A stretch of 64,000 bases of DNA, from the NCBI RefSeq assembly GCF_003790525.1, contig NZ_CP033635.1, one strand, 5' to 3'. Within the stretch, counting starts at the first letter, position 1. Every line of letters starts with the position of its first letter. This DNA comes from Escherichia coli (GTDB taxonomy: Bacteria; Pseudomonadota; Gammaproteobacteria; Enterobacterales; Enterobacteriaceae). Position numbers and translations under genes: made by a program. Shown piece by piece: positions 4,601 through 61,442 of the stretch. The notes under the pieces were generated by a model. The model was not told where the DNA came from. It made no database searches and was given only the letters and a program-made list of their open reading frames with translations.

Positions 4601-5195
4601 ACCGCAGTGGGAACCGGTGTTGACTGAGTGGATCACGGCTGTCCTCCAGGCACCTCTCAATGAAACGGGTGTTAGCCTGAATCAGCTTTCCGATCGCGAT
4701 AAACAGGTGGAGATGGAGTTTTACCTGCCGATTAGTGAACCGCTTATCGCCAGCCAGCTTGATGCACTAATTCGCCAGTTTGACCCGCTATCCGCTGGCT
4801 GCCCGCCGCTGGAGTTCATGCAGGTACGCGGCATGTTAAAAGGCTTTATCGACCTGGTATTCCGCCACGAAGGGCGTTATTACCTGCTCGACTATAAATC
4901 CAACTGGTTGGGTGAAGACAGTTCGGCTTACACCCAACAGGCTATGGCAGCGGCAATGCAGGCACACCGCTATGATCTGCAATATCAGCTTTATACCCTG
5001 GCGCTGCACCGTTATCTGCGCCATCGCATTGCTGATTATGACTATGAGCGCCACTTTGGCGGCGTTATTTATCTGTTCCTGCGTGGCGTTGATAAAGAAC
5101 ATCCGCAACAAGGGATCTACGCGACCCGACCCAACGCCGGGTTGATTGACCTGATGGATGAGATGTTTGCCGGTATGACCCTGGAGGAGGCGTAA
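1653..5195 (+). CDS. recB: RecBCD exonuclease V beta subunit (helicase/nuclease)
   Basis: 1180 aa from ATG 1653 ([13 protein letters not shown]), Walker A AGTGKT, UvrD-type helicase motifs; length as recalled for K-12 RecB; 1-nt overlap with recD. Confidence 0.95.
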
Positions 5196-7021
5196 TGAAA
5201 TTGCAAAAGCAATTACTGGAAGCTGTGGAGCACAAACAGCTACGCCCGCTGGACGTGCAGTTTGCCCTGACCGTGGCGGGAGATGAACATCCTGCCGTCA
5301 CCCTCGCGGCGGCACTGTTAAGTCATGATGCCGGAGAGGGACACGTTTGTTTGCCGCTTTCACGACTGGAAAATAACGAGGCATCGCATCCGCTGTTGGC
5401 GACCTGTGTCAGTGAAATCGGTGAGCTACAAAATTGGGAAGAATGCTTGCTGGCTTCACAAGCGGTCAGCCGGGGAGATGAACCAACGCCGATGATCCTC
5501 TGTGGCGATCGTCTTTATTTGAATCGCATGTGGTGTAACGAGCGCACAGTGGCACGCTTTTTCAACGAAGTGAATCATGCCATTGAGGTTGATGAAGCTC
5601 TACTGGCGCAAACCCTGGACAAACTTTTTCCAGTAAGCGATGACATTAACTGGCAAAAAGTGGCGGCGGCAGTGGCGCTGACGCGGCGGATTTCGGTGAT
5701 TTCCGGCGGTCCTGGCACCGGTAAAACGACCACCGTAGCGAAGTTGCTGGCAGCCTTAATTCAAATGGCCGACGGAGAACGCTGCCGTATCCGTCTGGCT
5801 GCACCAACGGGTAAAGCTGCCGCGCGCTTAACCGAATCTCTCGGCAAGGCTTTGCGCCAGTTACCGCTGACCGATGAACAAAAGAAACGCATTCCGGAAG
5901 ATGCCAGTACTTTGCACCGATTGCTGGGCGCACAGCCGGGTAGCCAGCGTTTACGTCATCATGCCGGTAACCCGCTGCATCTTGATGTGCTGGTAGTAGA
6001 TGAAGCGTCAATGATCGATCTGCCGATGATGTCGAGACTGATAGACGCCTTGCCCGATCATGCGCGAGTGATCTTTCTCGGCGATCGTGATCAACTGGCC
6101 TCGGTTGAGGCTGGGGCTGTGCTGGGCGATATTTGTGCTTATGCCAATGCCGGCTTTACCGCCGAGCGTGCCGGGCAGCTAAGCCGCCTGACGGGAACTC
6201 ACATTCCGTCAGGAACTGGCACAGAAGCGGCATCTTTGCGCGACAGTCTCTGCCTGCTGCAAAAAAGCTATCGTTTCGGCAGCGATTCTGGCATTGGTCA
6301 GTTAGCTGCGGCGATTAACCGTGGTGATAAAATGGCAGTGAAAACCGTTTTTCAGCAGGATTTTACTGATATCGAAAAACGGCTTTTACAGAGCGGCGAA
6401 GATTATATTGCGATGCTTGAGGAAGCTCTTTCGGGTTACGGACGTTATCTGGATCTGCTGCAAGCGCGTGCCGAGCCGGATTTAATCATTCAGGCGTTCA
6501 ATGAGTACCAGCTTTTGTGCGCCCTGCGGGAAGGGCCGTTTGGCGTGGCTGGACTGAATGAGCGAATTGAGCAGTTTATGCAACAGAAGCGCAAAATTCA
6601 TCGTAATCCGCACTCTCGTTGGTACGAAGGCCGACCGGTGATGATTGCCCGTAATGACAGCGCGCTTGGGTTGTTTAATGGCGATATCGGTATTGCGCTG
6701 GATCGCGGGCAGGGGACGCGCGTCTGGTTTGCGATGCCGGACGGCAATATTAAGTCTGTGCAACCGAGTCGCTTGCCAGAGCACGAAACGACGTGGGCGA
6801 TGACGGTACATAAATCGCAGGGATCGGAGTTCGACCATGCGGCGTTGATTTTACCGAGCCAACGCACGCCAGTAGTAACACGAGAGCTGGTTTACACTGC
6901 GGTGACCCGCGCGCGTCGCCGTCTGTCGCTGTATGCCGATGAGCGCATTTTAAGTGCGGCAATTGCCACGCGCACCGAGCGGCGCAGCGGTCTGGCGGCG
7001 TTGTTTAGTTCACGGGGATAA
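5195..7021 (+). CDS. recD: RecBCD exonuclease V alpha subunit
   Basis: 608 aa, Walker [12 protein letters not shown]1 helicase motifs; follows recB. Confidence 0.95.
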
Positions 7022-56433: not shown

Positions 56434-57859
56434 TAATGCCAGTCAGTTAAGCAACTGACTGGCTCTTTTTCGGGGCTGTGGGGTATTTCCAGGGCCTCTC
56501 CTTTACCACTCTCGGGAAGGCCCTTTCCCTTCTTGTCGGTAATTTCACAAGTTGTCCCATACTTGCAAGATCGCGCATCAGCTCCGGTATACGTCCCGGT
56601 GAAGCGCCCTGCAATGTCATCAGCATTCTCATCACCATTCCACATGATTCTGAGAAACTCAGTTGATTCGGCCAGTAACCTTTCAGATATTCCGCCATTT
56701 TAATCATCTGATATCTCACCAGATTATAAGCCAGTAAGACACCCCACAGCTCTTGCTCCACAAGCTCCGGTTTTTTACTTCTCAGCGTCAGCCTGCTCAG
56801 TTGCATCGTCTGTTTTATCTCCCTGTATCCCAGTTCGATTTCCCAGCGATGACTGTACAGATCCGCCATTTCTCCTCCGGGGAAGCGCATGGCGTCCGTC
56901 ATCGACGTCAGCAGATGGCAGACTTTTCCTTTGCGCGTCACGGTCAGCAGGCGGGCTGTCACTTCATTTCCCAGTCCCGGCCACTTTTTTCGTGCCTGCG
57001 GGCTGGTTTTCAGCTTCACCAGATGATCGCCTTTACCCAGTTTTCTGATCTCTTCATATTGCGCTCCCTTTCTGAGAGGTATCATCCAGTGGCGGTGTTC
57101 TCCCGCCAGGCTCCAGGCATTTAACAGTCCCAGTGAGTAATAACCTTTATCCATTAACGTCAGAGTGTTATCGCCGGTTTGTTCTATAAGTTGCTCAGCA
57201 AGCTCATTTTCGCTGTTCTTCATCGTGCCGAAGGCTGCAGCCGTCAGCAGATGGCTGGTCAGTTCCATCTGGCAGACCATTTTGACCTGCGGGTAGAGCG
57301 CCGGGTTCCCGGCATGTGTCTGGCGGGGGAAGGCTGCATCGTTCTCTGGTGTATCCGGTGTGCGCCAGAACACACCATCGATGGCCAGCAGGGTCAGGCC
57401 GCACCAGTGCGGATGCGGCGTGGCGTTATGCCAGAGCTGCGCTGTTTTCGTGAACACGCGGCGGACAGCCTCACTTCCCAGGCGCTGGCGGGCCTGAATA
57501 ACGGCACTGGGGGCAACGAAGGGGCGATTGCCCGGCAGCATGATGTCCAGGCGATTCACAATCTGGTGAAGAGGTTCTTTACGCTCAAGCGCCATGCCAA
57601 CAATACACCAGACCATCATTTCGAGGGGAAGACGGCGCTTGCGTAGCGTTACAGTACCTGATTCGGCAAGGCAACGAGAGATGAGTTCGGGGTCGAGGTA
57701 ATCCCCCAGAGAAGTCAGTGGGTTACGCAGAGAATCGTAACGGGATACCAGATCAAGAGCCTGTCCAATGTGCATAAAAAAATCCGGAAACAAGTGAGCG
57801 TTTCCGGATTCTTACACAGCCACTGGATCGGTCAACTGATCCTTAACTGATCGGCATTA
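56434..57859 (-). mobile_element. IS4 insertion sequence (1426 bp) with imperfect 18-bp terminal inverted repeats
   Basis: Ends taatgccagtcagttaag ... cttaactgatcggcatta (16/18 complementary); encodes an IS4-family DDE transposase; flanked by a 14-bp direct repeat. Confidence 0.9.
56447..57775 (-). CDS. insG: IS4 transposase
   Basis: 442 aa from [31 protein letters not shown], which I recognise as the IS4 transposase N-terminus. Confidence 0.9.
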
Positions 57860-57891: not shown

Positions 57892-58764
57892 TTACCAGCG
57901 GCCAGACGCGCCGCCACCGCCAGAAGAACCGCCACCTCCGTTAAATCCGCCGCCAGTTGAGCCGCCACCAGAACCGCCGCTGTCTGAATGATAACTTCTA
58001 CCTGATGCTTTTTTCTGTGGGACACATAACCAGGTAAAGACCATAATGATGGTGAAAGCAAAAAAGAAGGAAAATACAGCAATGGAAAAAGTTTGATCGG
58101 AGAACAGGAATAAATCTATAAGATAGACTGTTGAAATACAAACACTGCTTTTAAATGCCCGACAAAAATTATTGCCTTGATGAAAAAACCAGAAAGGGAA
58201 GAACATCACTGCAAATACCCAAAAAATAGCAAAGTAGTAATGATCACTGGAAGACGCTGATTCACTTTCTGAAGGATTAGACGAATATTGGTGTTGTGAA
58301 GTGAGTTGGTTATTCAAAGCGATTATAGCTAATTCTAATCCCTTAGCTAATTTTTGTTTTTTAAAGGCGGGTATCATGATGCTACGGATGATATTGCCAG
58401 CCAGAGCATCGGTTACCTTTTCTTCCAGCCCATAACCTACCTGGATGCGGACAGTACGATCCGACCAGGCAACAATGATCAGTATCCCATCATTACGTTT
58501 GGCATCTCCTAAACGCCAATTGTCAAAAACTCTTGTAGCATATTGTTCAATAGAATCGTCTCCGGTGGATGGCACTATTAATACAGCGACCTGTGCCCGT
58601 GTTTTTTGTGTAATATCCTGCAGCTGTTGTGTTAGTGATTGTTGTTCAGACGTGCTTAAGGTACCAGTAATATCGGTCACCTGTTGGCGCAGCTCCGGCA
58701 CAGCAATTTGCTGGGCAAGCACAGGAAGGCACCATAAAGTGAGTAGAAAAAGGATTATACGCAT
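57892..58764 (-). CDS. ygcG: TPM-domain membrane protein, YgcG-like (signal peptide, TPM domain, TM segments, Gly/Ser-rich C-terminal tail ending GRW)
   Basis: 290 aa from ATG 58764 ([17 protein letters not shown]); length as recalled for K-12 YgcG; the ORF-track start 4 codons upstream is a TTG and is rejected. Confidence 0.75.
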
Positions 58765-58769
58765 AACGA

Positions 58770-59918
58770 TCACCAACGGTCGGATGAACCGCCGCCTCCT
58801 GAAGAACCGCCGCCACCGCGGAAAGAATTTTTCGACGAAGAGCGAGAATGAGCATTACGATTCCCCGTTTTCCTGTTGCTTTTTTCTCCTGACCCCAGCT
58901 TAAGATTGCCAGTAAATTTGGCCACAATGATCAGCAGAACGATGCCAGCAATGGTTATTGGGCCGATAAAATGATCAATTAACCCAATAATTGTTGAGAT
59001 GAATGCTATATCTTTATTACTGGCGAATACCAGGCACCATCCCACAACAATTATCAGCAGCACGACAAACAATGAGTTTCGTTCGGATTGAGAAACCTGC
59101 TGAGTCGTCTTTTGTTTTTTCACTTTAGCGTTTTTATTTTTTGGGGCCAGCATCATAGGAAATACGCGATACATATGAAAAATTACCGCGAGACGCTGCC
59201 AGCAGGTTGCTGCGAAAAATAAACTAAAACAAACGAGCGATACCCGCCGAATGATGACATCATCCTGAAAGAAGAAAAACCAGACCATAGGAGTAATCAT
59301 CGATATCATCCATATGCCAGGCCCGGGACGGCTGGTAAATCGCCAGAGGACAACGATGGCAACGATCATCAGTAATGTCCAGGCAAGACATGGCAGCGAG
59401 CGTTGCGGATTAGCAAACAGATGATTGGCTAAAGCATCCAAAGGGCTAAGATTCGCTTTTATATAGGTAAACTGTGCGATGCCTTCAATTCCCTGCGTTA
59501 ACCCGGAGAAGAGATTATTTTTTTTGAATTCCGGTTGCATATGGTAATGAACAATTTGCGCAGCTTGTTCCGGTGGCAGCATCTCTTTCAGTCCATGCCC
59601 AATCTTCATTGACGCCAGCCCTTCCGGCCAAACGACGAGAATTAAGATACCTTCGCCGTACCGCTTCTCTCCAACGGGTTTCCAGTGATATAACCCGTAG
59701 CTCTGAGAGGCTGCAAGTTTAATGTTTTTGCCCCCTGTGGTCGGCGTAACCAACACGGCCACCTGGAAGTGGTTTTGCTGCTCGAGAGTCTGTAATTGTT
59801 GATTTAAAGCAGTTTGTTCTTCTGTCGTTAATGTCCCGGTTAAGTCAGTTACTGAAGGCAATTGTTCAGCGAATGCCTGGAAACCATATAGCATCAGAAG
59901 TAAGAGAAAAATACGCAT
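58770..59918 (-). CDS. TPM-domain membrane protein, paralogue 2 (extended multi-TM region, Gly-rich tail ending DRW)
   Basis: 382 aa; signal peptide [20 protein letters not shown]-like core ([20 protein letters not shown]), tail [15 protein letters not shown]; AAGGA RBS; 5 nt upstream of ygcG-like gene. Confidence 0.75.
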
Positions 59919-59932
59919 TTCAATTCCTTTTG

Positions 59933-60826
59933 TTACCAGCGCCCGGAGGCGCCACCGCCGCCAGATGAACCGCCGCCGCCGCGGAAATTGTCATTGTCGA
60001 ATGAAGAGGATGACGATGACGAATAGTGGGAGGAAGAATTACTTCTTGTATGGCGTGATGGCTGGTTGGTATTACGCATCGAATCCCGAACCTTTTTGCC
60101 GAAGGGAGTAAAAGCGATGGCGACAGCCAGGAACGGTGTGGCGAAGCAGAGTAATGTTGCGAGCACTCCCCAGCTTCCGCTGAAACCTGCTATAGGTAAA
60201 ACAAAGGCCAGTACAATAGCTGCGAAGCAAATCAGTCCCAGCGTTTTGATATATCCTCTGGCAGAAATAAACGTCAGTATTATCGCCCAGACTAACAAAG
60301 CCCACCAACCGCTAAAGGGCAAAGGGTGATCGGTCGGTGTTATCGTTGCTGAATTATTCCCCGTCAGGCGACTTTCAATATCGTTGATCCCCTTTTGTAA
60401 ACCACCAGCCAGGTCGCCTTTTTTAAATGCCGGAATAATACTGTTGCGAATAATTTTCCCGGACTGTACATCCGTAATAATACCTTCCAGTCCGTAACCG
60501 ATTTCAATACGCACGGTATGATCCTGCCAGGCGACTAACAGTAGAACGCCATCATCGCGGTCTTTATCACCCGGTTTCCAGCTATCGAATACCCGCGTTG
60601 CGTACTGCTCGATGGTTTCATCGCCTGTTGTATCAACCACTAACACGACCAACTGTGCGTGGTTTTTTTGCGTCAGGGCTTTAATCTGGTTGGTCAGGGT
60701 GTTTACTTCGCTGTTTGTTAATGTGCCGGTTAAGTCATTCACATACTTGGGGGATTCAGGTACTGGAATTTGTGTGGCAAACACAGATGAACAGAAGAAA
60801 GCCATAAGGAAGATAAAATTTCGCAT
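59933..60826 (-). CDS. TPM-domain membrane protein, paralogue 1 (Ser-rich + Gly-rich tail ending GRW)
   Basis: 297 aa from ATG 60826 (MRNFIFLMAFFCSSVFA); TPM-like core (LTGTL..QLVVLVV..IEIGYGLEGI); tail [15 protein letters not shown]; 13 nt after the lemA stop. Confidence 0.75.
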   Translation of the reverse strand: MRNFIFLMAFFCSSVFATQIPVPESPKYVNDLTGTLTNSEVNTLTNQIKALTQKNHAQLVVLVVDTTGDETIEQYATRVFDSWKPGDKDRDDGVLLLVAWQDHTVRIEIGYGLEGIITDVQSGKIIRNSIIPAFKKGDLAGGLQKGINDIESRLTGNNSATITPTDHPLPFSGWWALLVWAIILTFISARGYIKTLGLICFAAIVLAFVLPIAGFSGSWGVLATLLCFATPFLAVAIAFTPFGKKVRDSMRNTNQPSRHTRSNSSSHYSSSSSSSFDNDNFRGGGGSSGGGGASGRW

Positions 60827-60839
60827 AGAACTTCCCCGC

Positions 60840-61442
60840 TTAATGCGCATTAGCATTCTGGCTAAAATCTATTGTTGGGGCTTTACTTACTGCGGTGACA
60901 TCATCCGGCAAATAATTTTTCTTTGGTGTGTAATCCATGACCTTTGCGGTTAATACAGCGGGGAATTTGCGGATAGTGACATTATATTGTTCAATGGCTT
61001 TAATATATCTTCCTCGCGCAACGGCAATTCTATTTTCACTTCCTTCGAGCTGTACCATTAAGTTTTGATAGAGTTCCTGAGCTTTTAACTCAGGGTAACG
61101 TTCACTAATTATCGTTAACTGACCGAGAGTGCGAGACACCTGCGCCTGGGCTTGTTGCCAGGCTTGTAATTTTTGCGCATCTCCCGGAGCTTGCTGAAGA
61201 TCGCTACTGGCGCGATTAGCCTGGCTACGTGCCAATGTTACGGCTTCCAGTACCTCTTGTTCATGGCTAGAATAACCTTTAATACTGGCGACAAGATTAG
61301 GAATAAGATCGGCGCGACGTTGATATTGATTCAATACCTCAGACCAGGAGGCGTTAACCTGCTCATCATAGGTTTGAATATCGTTATATCCACAGCCTGA
61401 TAAATTGACAATAAATATAATTACGATGAATATCCTGAGCAT
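60840..61442 (-). CDS. LemA-family protein (probable lipoprotein, lipobox LSGC)
   Basis: 200 aa; N-terminal hydrophobic segment with Cys at position 17 in an LSGC lipobox; coiled-coil-rich LemA-like body; first gene of the 4-gene minus-strand cluster. Confidence 0.7.
   Translation of the reverse strand: MLRIFIVIIFIVNLSGCGYNDIQTYDEQVNASWSEVLNQYQRRADLIPNLVASIKGYSSHEQEVLEAVTLARSQANRASSDLQQAPGDAQKLQAWQQAQAQVSRTLGQLTIISERYPELKAQELYQNLMVQLEGSENRIAVARGRYIKAIEQYNVTIRKFPAVLTAKVMDYTPKKNYLPDDVTAVSKAPTIDFSQNANAH

Follow-up and report, generated by a model that had tools for sequence, protein, structure and literature searches.

Proteins with a TPM domain form a very large family without an agreed function, of which more than 22,000 clusters at 50% identity were retrieved in the search described below. 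Among them are the photosystem II assembly factor Psb32/TLP18.3 and YgcG, an orphan protein of Escherichia coli, and a nucleotide phosphatase activity has been reported for TPM domains. A glycine-rich extension has been described for non-photosynthetic homologs of Psb32 (Psb32 preprint), and in Firmicutes TPM proteins have been found within PspA operons (PMC11237479). Three members are encoded on a stretch of 64,000 nucleotides (nt) of the E. coli contig NZ_CP033635.1, which is called the window in the following. They have the same architecture as another family member, BA41 (PDB 5ANP), the deposited sequence of which ends with GGGGASGGW, and it is their C-terminal tail of 17 residues that is the subject of this study. 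In the searchable literature such tails have been known as composition only, namely, as "glycine-rich" or "low complexity". Neither the motif strings (GGGASGRW and variants) nor a fixed 17-residue motif, a predicted docking, or compensatory couplings were found there, and the motif as defined here, the coupling between it and the domain, and the resulting topology conflict appear to be new.

We lean, with caution, towards the view that the last 17 residues are a tethered strand that docks, in a position-specific way, on a TPM domain, either that of the same protein or that of an identical or paralogous subunit. The physical contact between tail and domain, its geometry at strand β4, and a functional consequence are what we infer from structure prediction and covariation.

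The C-terminal tail motif

The three genes are located on the minus strand, and their products have the layout of a tailed membrane subtype of the family, that is, a signal peptide, the TPM domain, one or more transmembrane (TM) segments, and a Gly-rich end of the form GGG[AS][SGT]xx[WFY]. The genes and tails, with the scores against the Pfam model PF04536 (gathering cutoff 22.1 bits), are the following (aa, amino acids; ORF, open reading frame):

59933–60856, minus strand: TPM paralog 1, ORF of 307 aa, or 297 aa with a RefSeq-style start at M11; E value 8.2e-41, 139.4 bits
59936–59986, minus strand: tail motif of paralog 1, from the translation; the stop codon is at 59933–59935
58770–59918, minus strand: TPM paralog 2, 382 aa; E value 3.7e-22, 79.1 bits
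58773–58823, minus strand: tail motif of paralog 2, from the translation
57892–58776, minus strand: TPM paralog 3, the ygcG equivalent, ORF of 294 aa from a TTG; E value 8.6e-38, 129.6 bits
57895–57945, minus strand: tail motif of paralog 3, from the translation

Paralog 1 consists of a signal peptide, the TPM domain, three TM helices, a disordered linker, and the tail, and its homolog P0001, which is 96% identical, has a length of 297 aa. In paralog 2 the signal peptide is followed by a divergent TPM domain (59472–59852), about five hydrophobic segments, a basic linker, and the tail. Paralog 3 contains the TPM domain at 58312–58680, followed by three hydrophobic segments and the tail. Its real start is probably a few codons downstream of the TTG, and ygcG is the annotation of its counterpart at the K-12-type locus.

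The three tails have 14–16 of the 17 residues in common, while the whole proteins are just 26–36% identical, and on this comparison the likeness of the tails, which the original prediction had pointed out, is far beyond chance. It had also been claimed that the tails are encoded by near-identical GC-rich DNA. The DNA is indeed GC-rich (0.69–0.80, compared to 0.50 for the window), but it is not near-identical: between paralogs 37–40 of the 51 nt are the same (73–78%), there are synonymous differences in 7–9 of the 17 codons, the longest identical run in register has 8–11 nt, and the longest substring common to the whole TPM genes has 11–14 nt. The synonymous differences imply that selection acts on the peptide. 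By the same measure, tail conservation is kept at the peptide level, and nothing points to recent gene conversion.

Efficient RecA recombination in E. coli needs roughly 23–27 bp of identity, and the identical runs of 8–14 nt fall below this length. The proposal that identical tracts in the tail DNA might drive gene conversion or deletion between the paralogs could thus be dismissed, in view of the shortness of the tracts and the identity of 73–78%. In addition, the haplotypes of the locus are not simple tail-to-tail deletions. The E. coli haplotype with lemA and a single TPM gene has an intact tail, followed by an unrelated ORF of 120 aa, and yqcG, a small gene of K-12-type strains, is no tail remnant. 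The E. albertii homologs of the 59933–60856 protein (P0021–P0025) have a length of 293 aa. One GGGGSS block has been deleted from them in frame, which is the outcome expected of slippage between the two GGC-rich repeats within one tail.

For an unbiased test of conservation, the TPM domain alone was used as query against 1.84 billion cluster representatives (E values up to 0.001), which yielded 22,141 clusters. An end of the form GGG[AS][SGT]..[WFY] was present in 118 of the best 150 family representatives, and many of those that lack it are short or fragment-like. A Gly-rich end was present in 114 of the best 150, and 111 of these 114 have a terminal W. The residue frequencies of the 114 ends, counted back from the C-terminus with the last residue as position 0, were as follows:

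Position 0: W, 97%
Position −1: variable; R 38%, S 31%, G 13%
Position −2: G, 82%
Position −3: S, 98%
Position −4: A 86%, S 14%
Positions −5 to −8: G, 93–100%
Position −9: S 60%, F 38%
Position −10: variable
Positions −11 to −14: G, 86–100%
Position −15: S, G, or R
Position −16: F, Y, or W, together 71%

The tail motif can be summarized as [FYW]-x-GGGG-x-[SF]-GGGG-[AS]-S-G-x-W-COOH. The original prediction of an invariant aromatic residue at the C-terminus agrees well with the near-invariant and position-conserved Trp. It had regarded the glycines as a flexible linker in front of a tag; yet invariance is highest in the two G4 blocks (86–100%, mostly 98–100%), and the second block lies inside the predicted strand described below.

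A DNA pattern for GGGG-A-S-G-x-W-stop matched at least 120 loci in species-representative genomes. Among the loci listed were Pseudomonadota, Bacteroidota, Desulfobacterota, Acidobacteriota, Nitrospirota, Verrucomicrobiota, Lentisphaerota, Planctomycetota, Chlorobiota, Omnitrophota, Cloacimonadota, and Patescibacteria. Among the matches listed, 107 of 122 tail ORFs contained a TPM domain, and most of the others were truncated at a locus boundary. Carriers of the exact motif in cellular genomes are almost exclusively TPM proteins. Nearly all full-length homologs from Enterobacterales keep the tail end, and homologs far outside of this order keep the motif, so that the two findings named in advance as unfavorable, homologs without any conserved C-terminal motif or a tail of mere low complexity, were not made. 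On this phylogenetic pattern the tail is a position-specific motif and not mere composition, and it is ancient. In Flavobacteriia, single-TM forms (L026, L060, L091, L100) have an Arg-rich cluster after the TM segment, then another short conserved motif, LDxWDxIILSNMGR, and then the Gly-rich part.

Coupling of the tail to the TPM domain

The structure of full-length paralog 1 was predicted with AlphaFold2 (AF2), using an alignment of 89 sequences; confidence is given as the predicted local distance difference test (pLDDT). The following features of paralog 1 are relevant here:

60374–60742, minus strand: TPM domain, residues 39–161, the Pfam PF04536 match
60587–60589, minus strand: codon of F90 within the TPM domain, which co-varies with tail position −9
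60515–60517, minus strand: codon of T114 within the TPM domain, which co-varies with tail position −1
60113–60307, minus strand: three predicted TM helices, residues 184–248, from the AF2 secondary structure
59987–60067, minus strand: disordered Ser-/basic-rich linker NQPSRHTRSNSSSHYSSSSSSSFDNDN, from the translation; pLDDT 30–43

The model contains a confident TPM domain, which matches the structures 5ANP, 7TBR, and 2KW7 with E values of 8e-12 to 4e-9, TM helices at residues 184–199, 203–222, and 228–248, and a short amphipathic helix. The linker (residues 264–290) is disordered. A Ser/basic-rich disordered stretch had been predicted in front of each of the three tails. All three stretches are indeed rich in Ser and basic residues, and the low pLDDT values of the 59933–60856 protein are in line with disorder. 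After the linker the confidence rises again, with a pLDDT of 81 for residues 291–300 and of 94 for residues 301–307, and a strand is formed by residues 301–306. In a second construct the signal peptide and the TM segments were omitted, and residues 28–172 were joined to residues 249–307. In this TM-deleted model the two parts of the tail have pLDDT values of 83 and 98, and a strand of nine residues (195–203) comprises GGGGASGRW. Therefore, the placement of the tail is independent of the TM helices, and since the TPM domain is the sole other folded element in the construct, AF2 docks the tail on the TPM domain. The result would be a C-terminal β-augmentation by the predicted 9-residue strand with a pLDDT of 83–98, the partner strand of which was deduced and not read from coordinates.

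Covariation between domain columns and tail positions was analyzed for 310 non-identical tail-bearing proteins (effective number 215). Two compensating pairs stand out, domain column 59 with tail position −9, and domain column 83 with tail position −1. In paralog 1, column 59 is F90 in the sequence RVFDSW of helix α2, and column 83 is T114 at the start of β4 (TVRIEIGYGLEG). The numbers of proteins were as follows:

Column 59 and tail −9: F in the domain and not F in the tail, 174; A, G, V, or another non-Phe residue in the domain and F in the tail, 115; neither F, 15; both F, 6
Column 83 and tail −1: not basic in the domain and R or K in the tail, 149; K or R in the domain and not basic in the tail, 125; both basic, 7; neither basic, 29

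The three window proteins obey both rules, and the couplings are seen in the one-TM as well as in the three-TM class. They were replicated in samples of genomes and of cluster representatives, with Fisher p values between 1e-7 and 4e-25 that are not corrected for phylogeny; the first pair reached 2e-13 and 4e-25 in two separate samples. To count co-changes, a neighbor-joining tree was built without the tested columns. Column 59 and tail −9 changed on the same branch 19 times, compared to 1.4 times expected, while the other 126 columns had a median of 3 and a 95th percentile of 6 such changes. For column 83 and tail −1 there were 22 same-branch changes versus 3.3 expected. The cross-pairs had just 2–3 co-changes and all four combinations of states occur. 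Therefore, these are two separate couplings and not markers of subfamilies. A bias in base composition would be expected to generate an association of the opposite sign.

The predicted secondary structure contains a β3/β4 hairpin and a β2/α2/β3 crossover. It is therefore expected that F90 is near the C-terminal end of β4, and T114 is at its start. The coupled domain residues would thus lie at opposite ends of β4, the coupled tail residues mark both termini of the strand predicted by AF2, and covariation and AF2 would agree geometrically. Both couplings would be satisfied by a tail strand from −9 to −1 that runs antiparallel to β4.

In such an arrangement, the disordered Ser/Gly/Arg-rich linker would tether the docking strand to the membrane segments, and residues −9 to −1 would form an antiparallel edge strand along β4, which corresponds to the family motif VRIEVGYGLEG. 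The residue at −9 would be placed beside the C-terminal end of helix α2 (F90), and the residue at −1 beside the start of β4 (T114). The terminal Trp, and possibly its carboxylate, would be the anchor, and the G4 blocks would be required where the domain surface leaves no room for side chains. The tail might act as a latch in two ways. In self-regulation it would cover or complete a conserved face of the TPM domain, and in assembly it would link subunits or paralogs in a manner similar to donor strands.

Membrane topology and alternative explanations

Several observations weigh against a contact of this kind. The docking site was derived from secondary structure and covariation and not from the coordinates of the AF2 model, AF2 ignores the membrane, and the co-change counts rest on a noisy tree from about 125 columns. 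The solved TPM structures cover the domain only, and none of them includes the tail. The predicted topology speaks against a contact in the mature protein. An N-terminus that resembles a signal peptide was found in 89% of the tail-bearing proteins, and in 310 of 310 at least one hydrophobic segment separates the domain from the tail. Hydropathy windows turned out to be a crude measure of TM number and merged adjacent helices, and classes of total hydrophobic length together with the AF2 helices were used instead. The classes correspond to one TM segment (55 proteins) and three TM segments (227 proteins), both odd numbers, and paralog 2 has apparently five, judged from its sequence. At least two K/R residues occur within 20 residues after the last TM segment in 72–75% of the proteins, and the charged loops of paralog 1 obey the positive-inside rule. 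The signal peptide, the odd TM number, and the positive-inside charges together place tail and domain on opposite sides of the inner membrane; by standard rules, the domain is predicted to be periplasmic and the tail cytoplasmic. For BA41, an extracytoplasmic domain and a cytoplasmic tail have reportedly been predicted as well. Non-TPM carriers of the same tail have no signal peptide or have an N-out/C-in anchor, which also suggests a cytoplasmic tail. In β-augmentation ligand and receptor share one compartment, whereas the topology predicted from the sequences puts them into two. The options for this conflict are a mispredicted topology, a contact in the unexported precursor only, a cytoplasmic TPM paralog as the receptor, or a passage through the membrane.

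The tail could instead be a cytoplasmic recognition tag for a non-TPM partner, for example, a protease or adaptor, a PspA-like membrane-remodelling protein, or the membrane surface, which we regard as unlikely. The odd TM number and the basic cluster after the last TM segment predict a cytoplasmic tail, the tail is always at the extreme C-terminus with an aromatic last residue, and the same 17-mer is present on unrelated small proteins without a signal peptide from viral contigs and metagenomes. YciQ (DUF2207), an E. coli membrane protein from outside of the TPM family, likewise combines a Gly run with a W end, and the TPM proteins in PspA operons of Firmicutes would fit. However, a tag leaves the compensation of tail positions −9 and −1 with residues of the periplasmic domain unexplained, and likewise the placement of the tail by AF2. 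No candidate receptor gene was common to the loci examined, and the tail has no resemblance to the ssrA-type degron end ...LAA. Of the roles that the original prediction had offered for the tail as a recognition tag (protease, sorting, or partner docking), partner docking fits best, while AF2 and covariation point to the protein's own TPM domain rather than to a protease or a sorting machinery.

The carriers outside of the TPM family are diverse. In viral contigs the same 17-mer is present on small zinc-ribbon proteins and small basic proteins. Non-TPM proteins with the full motif are encoded on the viral contigs L006, L007, L012, L013, L014, L016, L017, L020, and L021, and the carriers match the motif also at upstream positions outside of the search pattern. 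The small basic proteins of L006 and L017 are homologous. For the carrier in L012 a double zinc ribbon was matched weakly and below threshold, and that in L021 matches a PHROG virion structural protein (E value 3.6e-19); for the non-TPM carriers in viral contigs, searches with Pfam and PHROGs mostly gave no match. Apart from LemA and TPM genes, no neighboring genes are common to these carriers. On a 480-kb IMG/VR contig (L015 3873–6520, plus strand) lemA is followed by three consecutive tail-bearing ORFs, which encode a soluble acidic protein of 84 aa (4621–4875), a TM-only protein of 78 aa (5011–5247), and a TPM protein with a long charged insert; the cluster is flanked by NUDIX-like ORFs. 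Proteins of 82–86 aa that are built solely of a TM segment and the tail also exist. Examples are the 86-aa proteins P0270 and P0272 and the one encoded at L142 5001–5261 (plus strand), in which a TM anchor is followed only by a basic part, a Ser-rich acidic linker, and the tail. The gene in L142 is adjacent to genes for an M48/TPR peptidase, a DsbA-like protein, and a small exported protein; the first two are periplasmic neighbors, and no TPM gene was found within 5 kb of this P0272-type gene.

It is quite unlikely, in our view, that the tail recruits a cytoplasmic stand-alone TPM paralog from the next gene and thereby couples periplasmic and cytoplasmic TPM domains, AF2 having docked it on the wrong domain. 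A stand-alone TPM gene (about 145–165 aa, without signal peptide and TM segment) accompanies the tailed gene in many phyla (e.g., L026 8038–8484, L051 4304–4801, and L053 3092–3595, all on the minus strand). The stand-alone proteins have a conserved C-terminus of their own, HFP..NELP[DN].... The usual operon consists of lemA, the tailed TPM gene, and the cytoplasmic TPM gene; LemA together with two or three TPM ORFs was found in 55 of 120 loci. Most of the untailed TPM genes encode neither a signal peptide nor a TM segment (11% and 4%, respectively, of 57 score as hydrophobic), and at several loci the tail-coding region lies in another frame just upstream, so that the genes may overlap or abut. 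For systems with such a gene the topology conflict would be removed. However, this solution, which fits the usual operon, fits neither the E. coli locus nor the couplings, which are with the protein's own domain. A stand-alone cytoplasmic TPM gene is absent from the window locus, where all three TPM genes encode a signal peptide, TM segments, and the tail, as well as from the other E. coli haplotypes examined and from L015, and the tail is still under selection. In the cytoplasmic subfamily a Phe is conserved within the aligned helix, and the logic of one Phe at either of two places cannot be applied to it. A covariation analysis of 35 gene pairs, which was underpowered with little variation, showed nothing clear.

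Passage through the membrane leads to a further and highly improbable version, namely, that tail and TPM domain are a ligand–receptor pair that is kept apart by the inner membrane and meets upon a breach, so that the proteins would be sensors or latches for membrane breach. For example, a thin Gly-rich chain, or soluble tail-bearing cytoplasmic proteins, would pass through a lesion or pore. This would explain the TM segments between the co-evolving partners (0 of 310 are without), the odd number of TM segments, the connections with envelope stress (yqcG beside ygcG in K-12-type strains, PspA operons in Firmicutes), and the soluble and phage-encoded proteins with the same tail.

That the tail is a low-complexity spacer, the likeness of which among paralogs results from composition or recent gene conversion at GC-rich repeats, is hardly credible, since the natural loss of a GGGGSS block in E. 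albertii, which would favor it, is opposed by the cross-phyla conservation of A-S-G-x-W and of Gly at fixed distances from the end, by a synonymous divergence that rules out recent conversion, and by identical runs too short for RecA.

The docking strand remains our preferred explanation. If the contact is real, either the accepted topology is wrong, or a membrane separates matched partners, which would be an unusual regulatory principle. In addition, small non-TPM proteins with the tail, some of which come from phage-like contigs, would then be recognizable as proteins directed at TPM domains. For the family, a fixed motif that is coupled to the domain would provide the first specific and testable intramolecular interaction. 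The 17-mer peptide is a ready reagent, and there are four residues to mutate. The results also caution against dismissing Gly/Ser-rich termini as linkers.

Genomic context and comparison with known systems

In the window, the order of genes is pyrG, eno, a copy of IS4, the three TPM genes, the gene for a LemA protein, and queE on the plus strand. The region agrees to 100% with the chromosome of E. coli SMS-3-5. The lemA gene is adjacent to the TPM genes and on the same strand, as in LemA–TPM operons:

60840–61442, minus strand: LemA-family lipoprotein, first gene of the cluster; Pfam PF04011, E value 1e-48; lipobox NLSGC-GYN

Of 120 tail-bearing loci that were sampled from other genomes, 83 contained a LemA ORF, whatever its position relative to the TPM gene. 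In 44 of 66 readable N-termini of LemA proteins the lipobox L-[ST]-G-C is followed by G-Y-N, which points to LemA as a periplasmic lipoprotein in proteobacteria, in contrast to the cytoplasmic orientation that is sometimes assumed for the family. Neither LemA nor any of the three TPM proteins matched the PADLOC models of defense systems, and membership in such a system was ruled out on this basis.

The eno–queE locus has at least three forms in E. coli. One form contains lemA and three TPM genes (strains SMS-3-5 and O157:H7), a second form, present in strain W2-5, contains lemA, one TPM gene, and the unrelated 120-aa ORF, which encodes a membrane protein, and the third, K-12-like form contains only ygcG and the small envelope-stress gene yqcG. 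The gene for the IS4-family transposase (56447–57793, minus strand) lies between eno and ygcG, and the IS4 insertion plus most of the query was found in only 35 of 5,426 complete E. coli genomes. A CRISPR array is present beyond queE in two of the other E. coli strains examined.

The tail can be compared to several described systems. The profile of the YxzE-like putative bacteriocins (PF25184) aligns to the linker and tail of paralog 1 with 24.7 bits, and also to small proteins composed of a TM segment, a Ser-rich part, and the tail, one of which scores 19.5 bits. None of these scores reaches the curated gathering cutoff of 40 bits, and the match is driven by the Ser/Gly composition. Paralog 1 was not assigned to this family, and the bacteriocin role is the family label only.

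A formal resemblance is also found in DUF2207 proteins, for which a Gly/Ser-rich intracellular C-terminus has been described (PMC10457818). YciQ shares with the TPM proteins an extracytoplasmic N-terminal domain, TM segments, and a Gly/Ser-rich C-terminus with a W end. E. coli K-12 yciQ (L004 6747–8642, plus strand) ends with SYSGGGAGGGAGGGGGGGW, that is, a Gly run and a terminal Trp. However, neither the A-S-G-x-W tip nor the x-[SF] spacer is present in the tail of YciQ, GGGAGGGAGGGGGGGW, and the domain of YciQ is unrelated.

GlyGly-CTERM and PEP-CTERM signals also are Gly-rich sequences near the C-terminus of envelope proteins. The order of their elements is motif, TM helix, and basic cluster, whereas in the TPM proteins the TM segments and the basic cluster precede the Gly blocks and the terminal W-COOH. 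The tail had no match to NCBIfam models of sorting signals, and no hydrophobic segment follows the Gly blocks. The view that the tail is distinct from GlyGly-CTERM could thus be confirmed, and a GlyGly-CTERM/rhombosortase signal or another sorting signal was ruled out by the lack of an NCBIfam match.

A parallel to the proposed docking strand is β-augmentation. In PDZ ligands, which have an aromatic or hydrophobic C-terminal end, and in the donor strands of chaperone–usher pili, a terminal peptide serves as an edge strand. In the TPM proteins, too, a short terminal peptide would add an edge strand, here according to a predicted model, the free C-terminus and the terminal aromatic residue are conserved, and close packing requires small residues. 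There are also differences. The TPM receptor is Rossmann-like and not a PDZ or Ig fold, the strand-forming tail consists largely of two Gly4 blocks, and ligand and receptor reside in one polypeptide, with predicted locations on opposite sides of the membrane.

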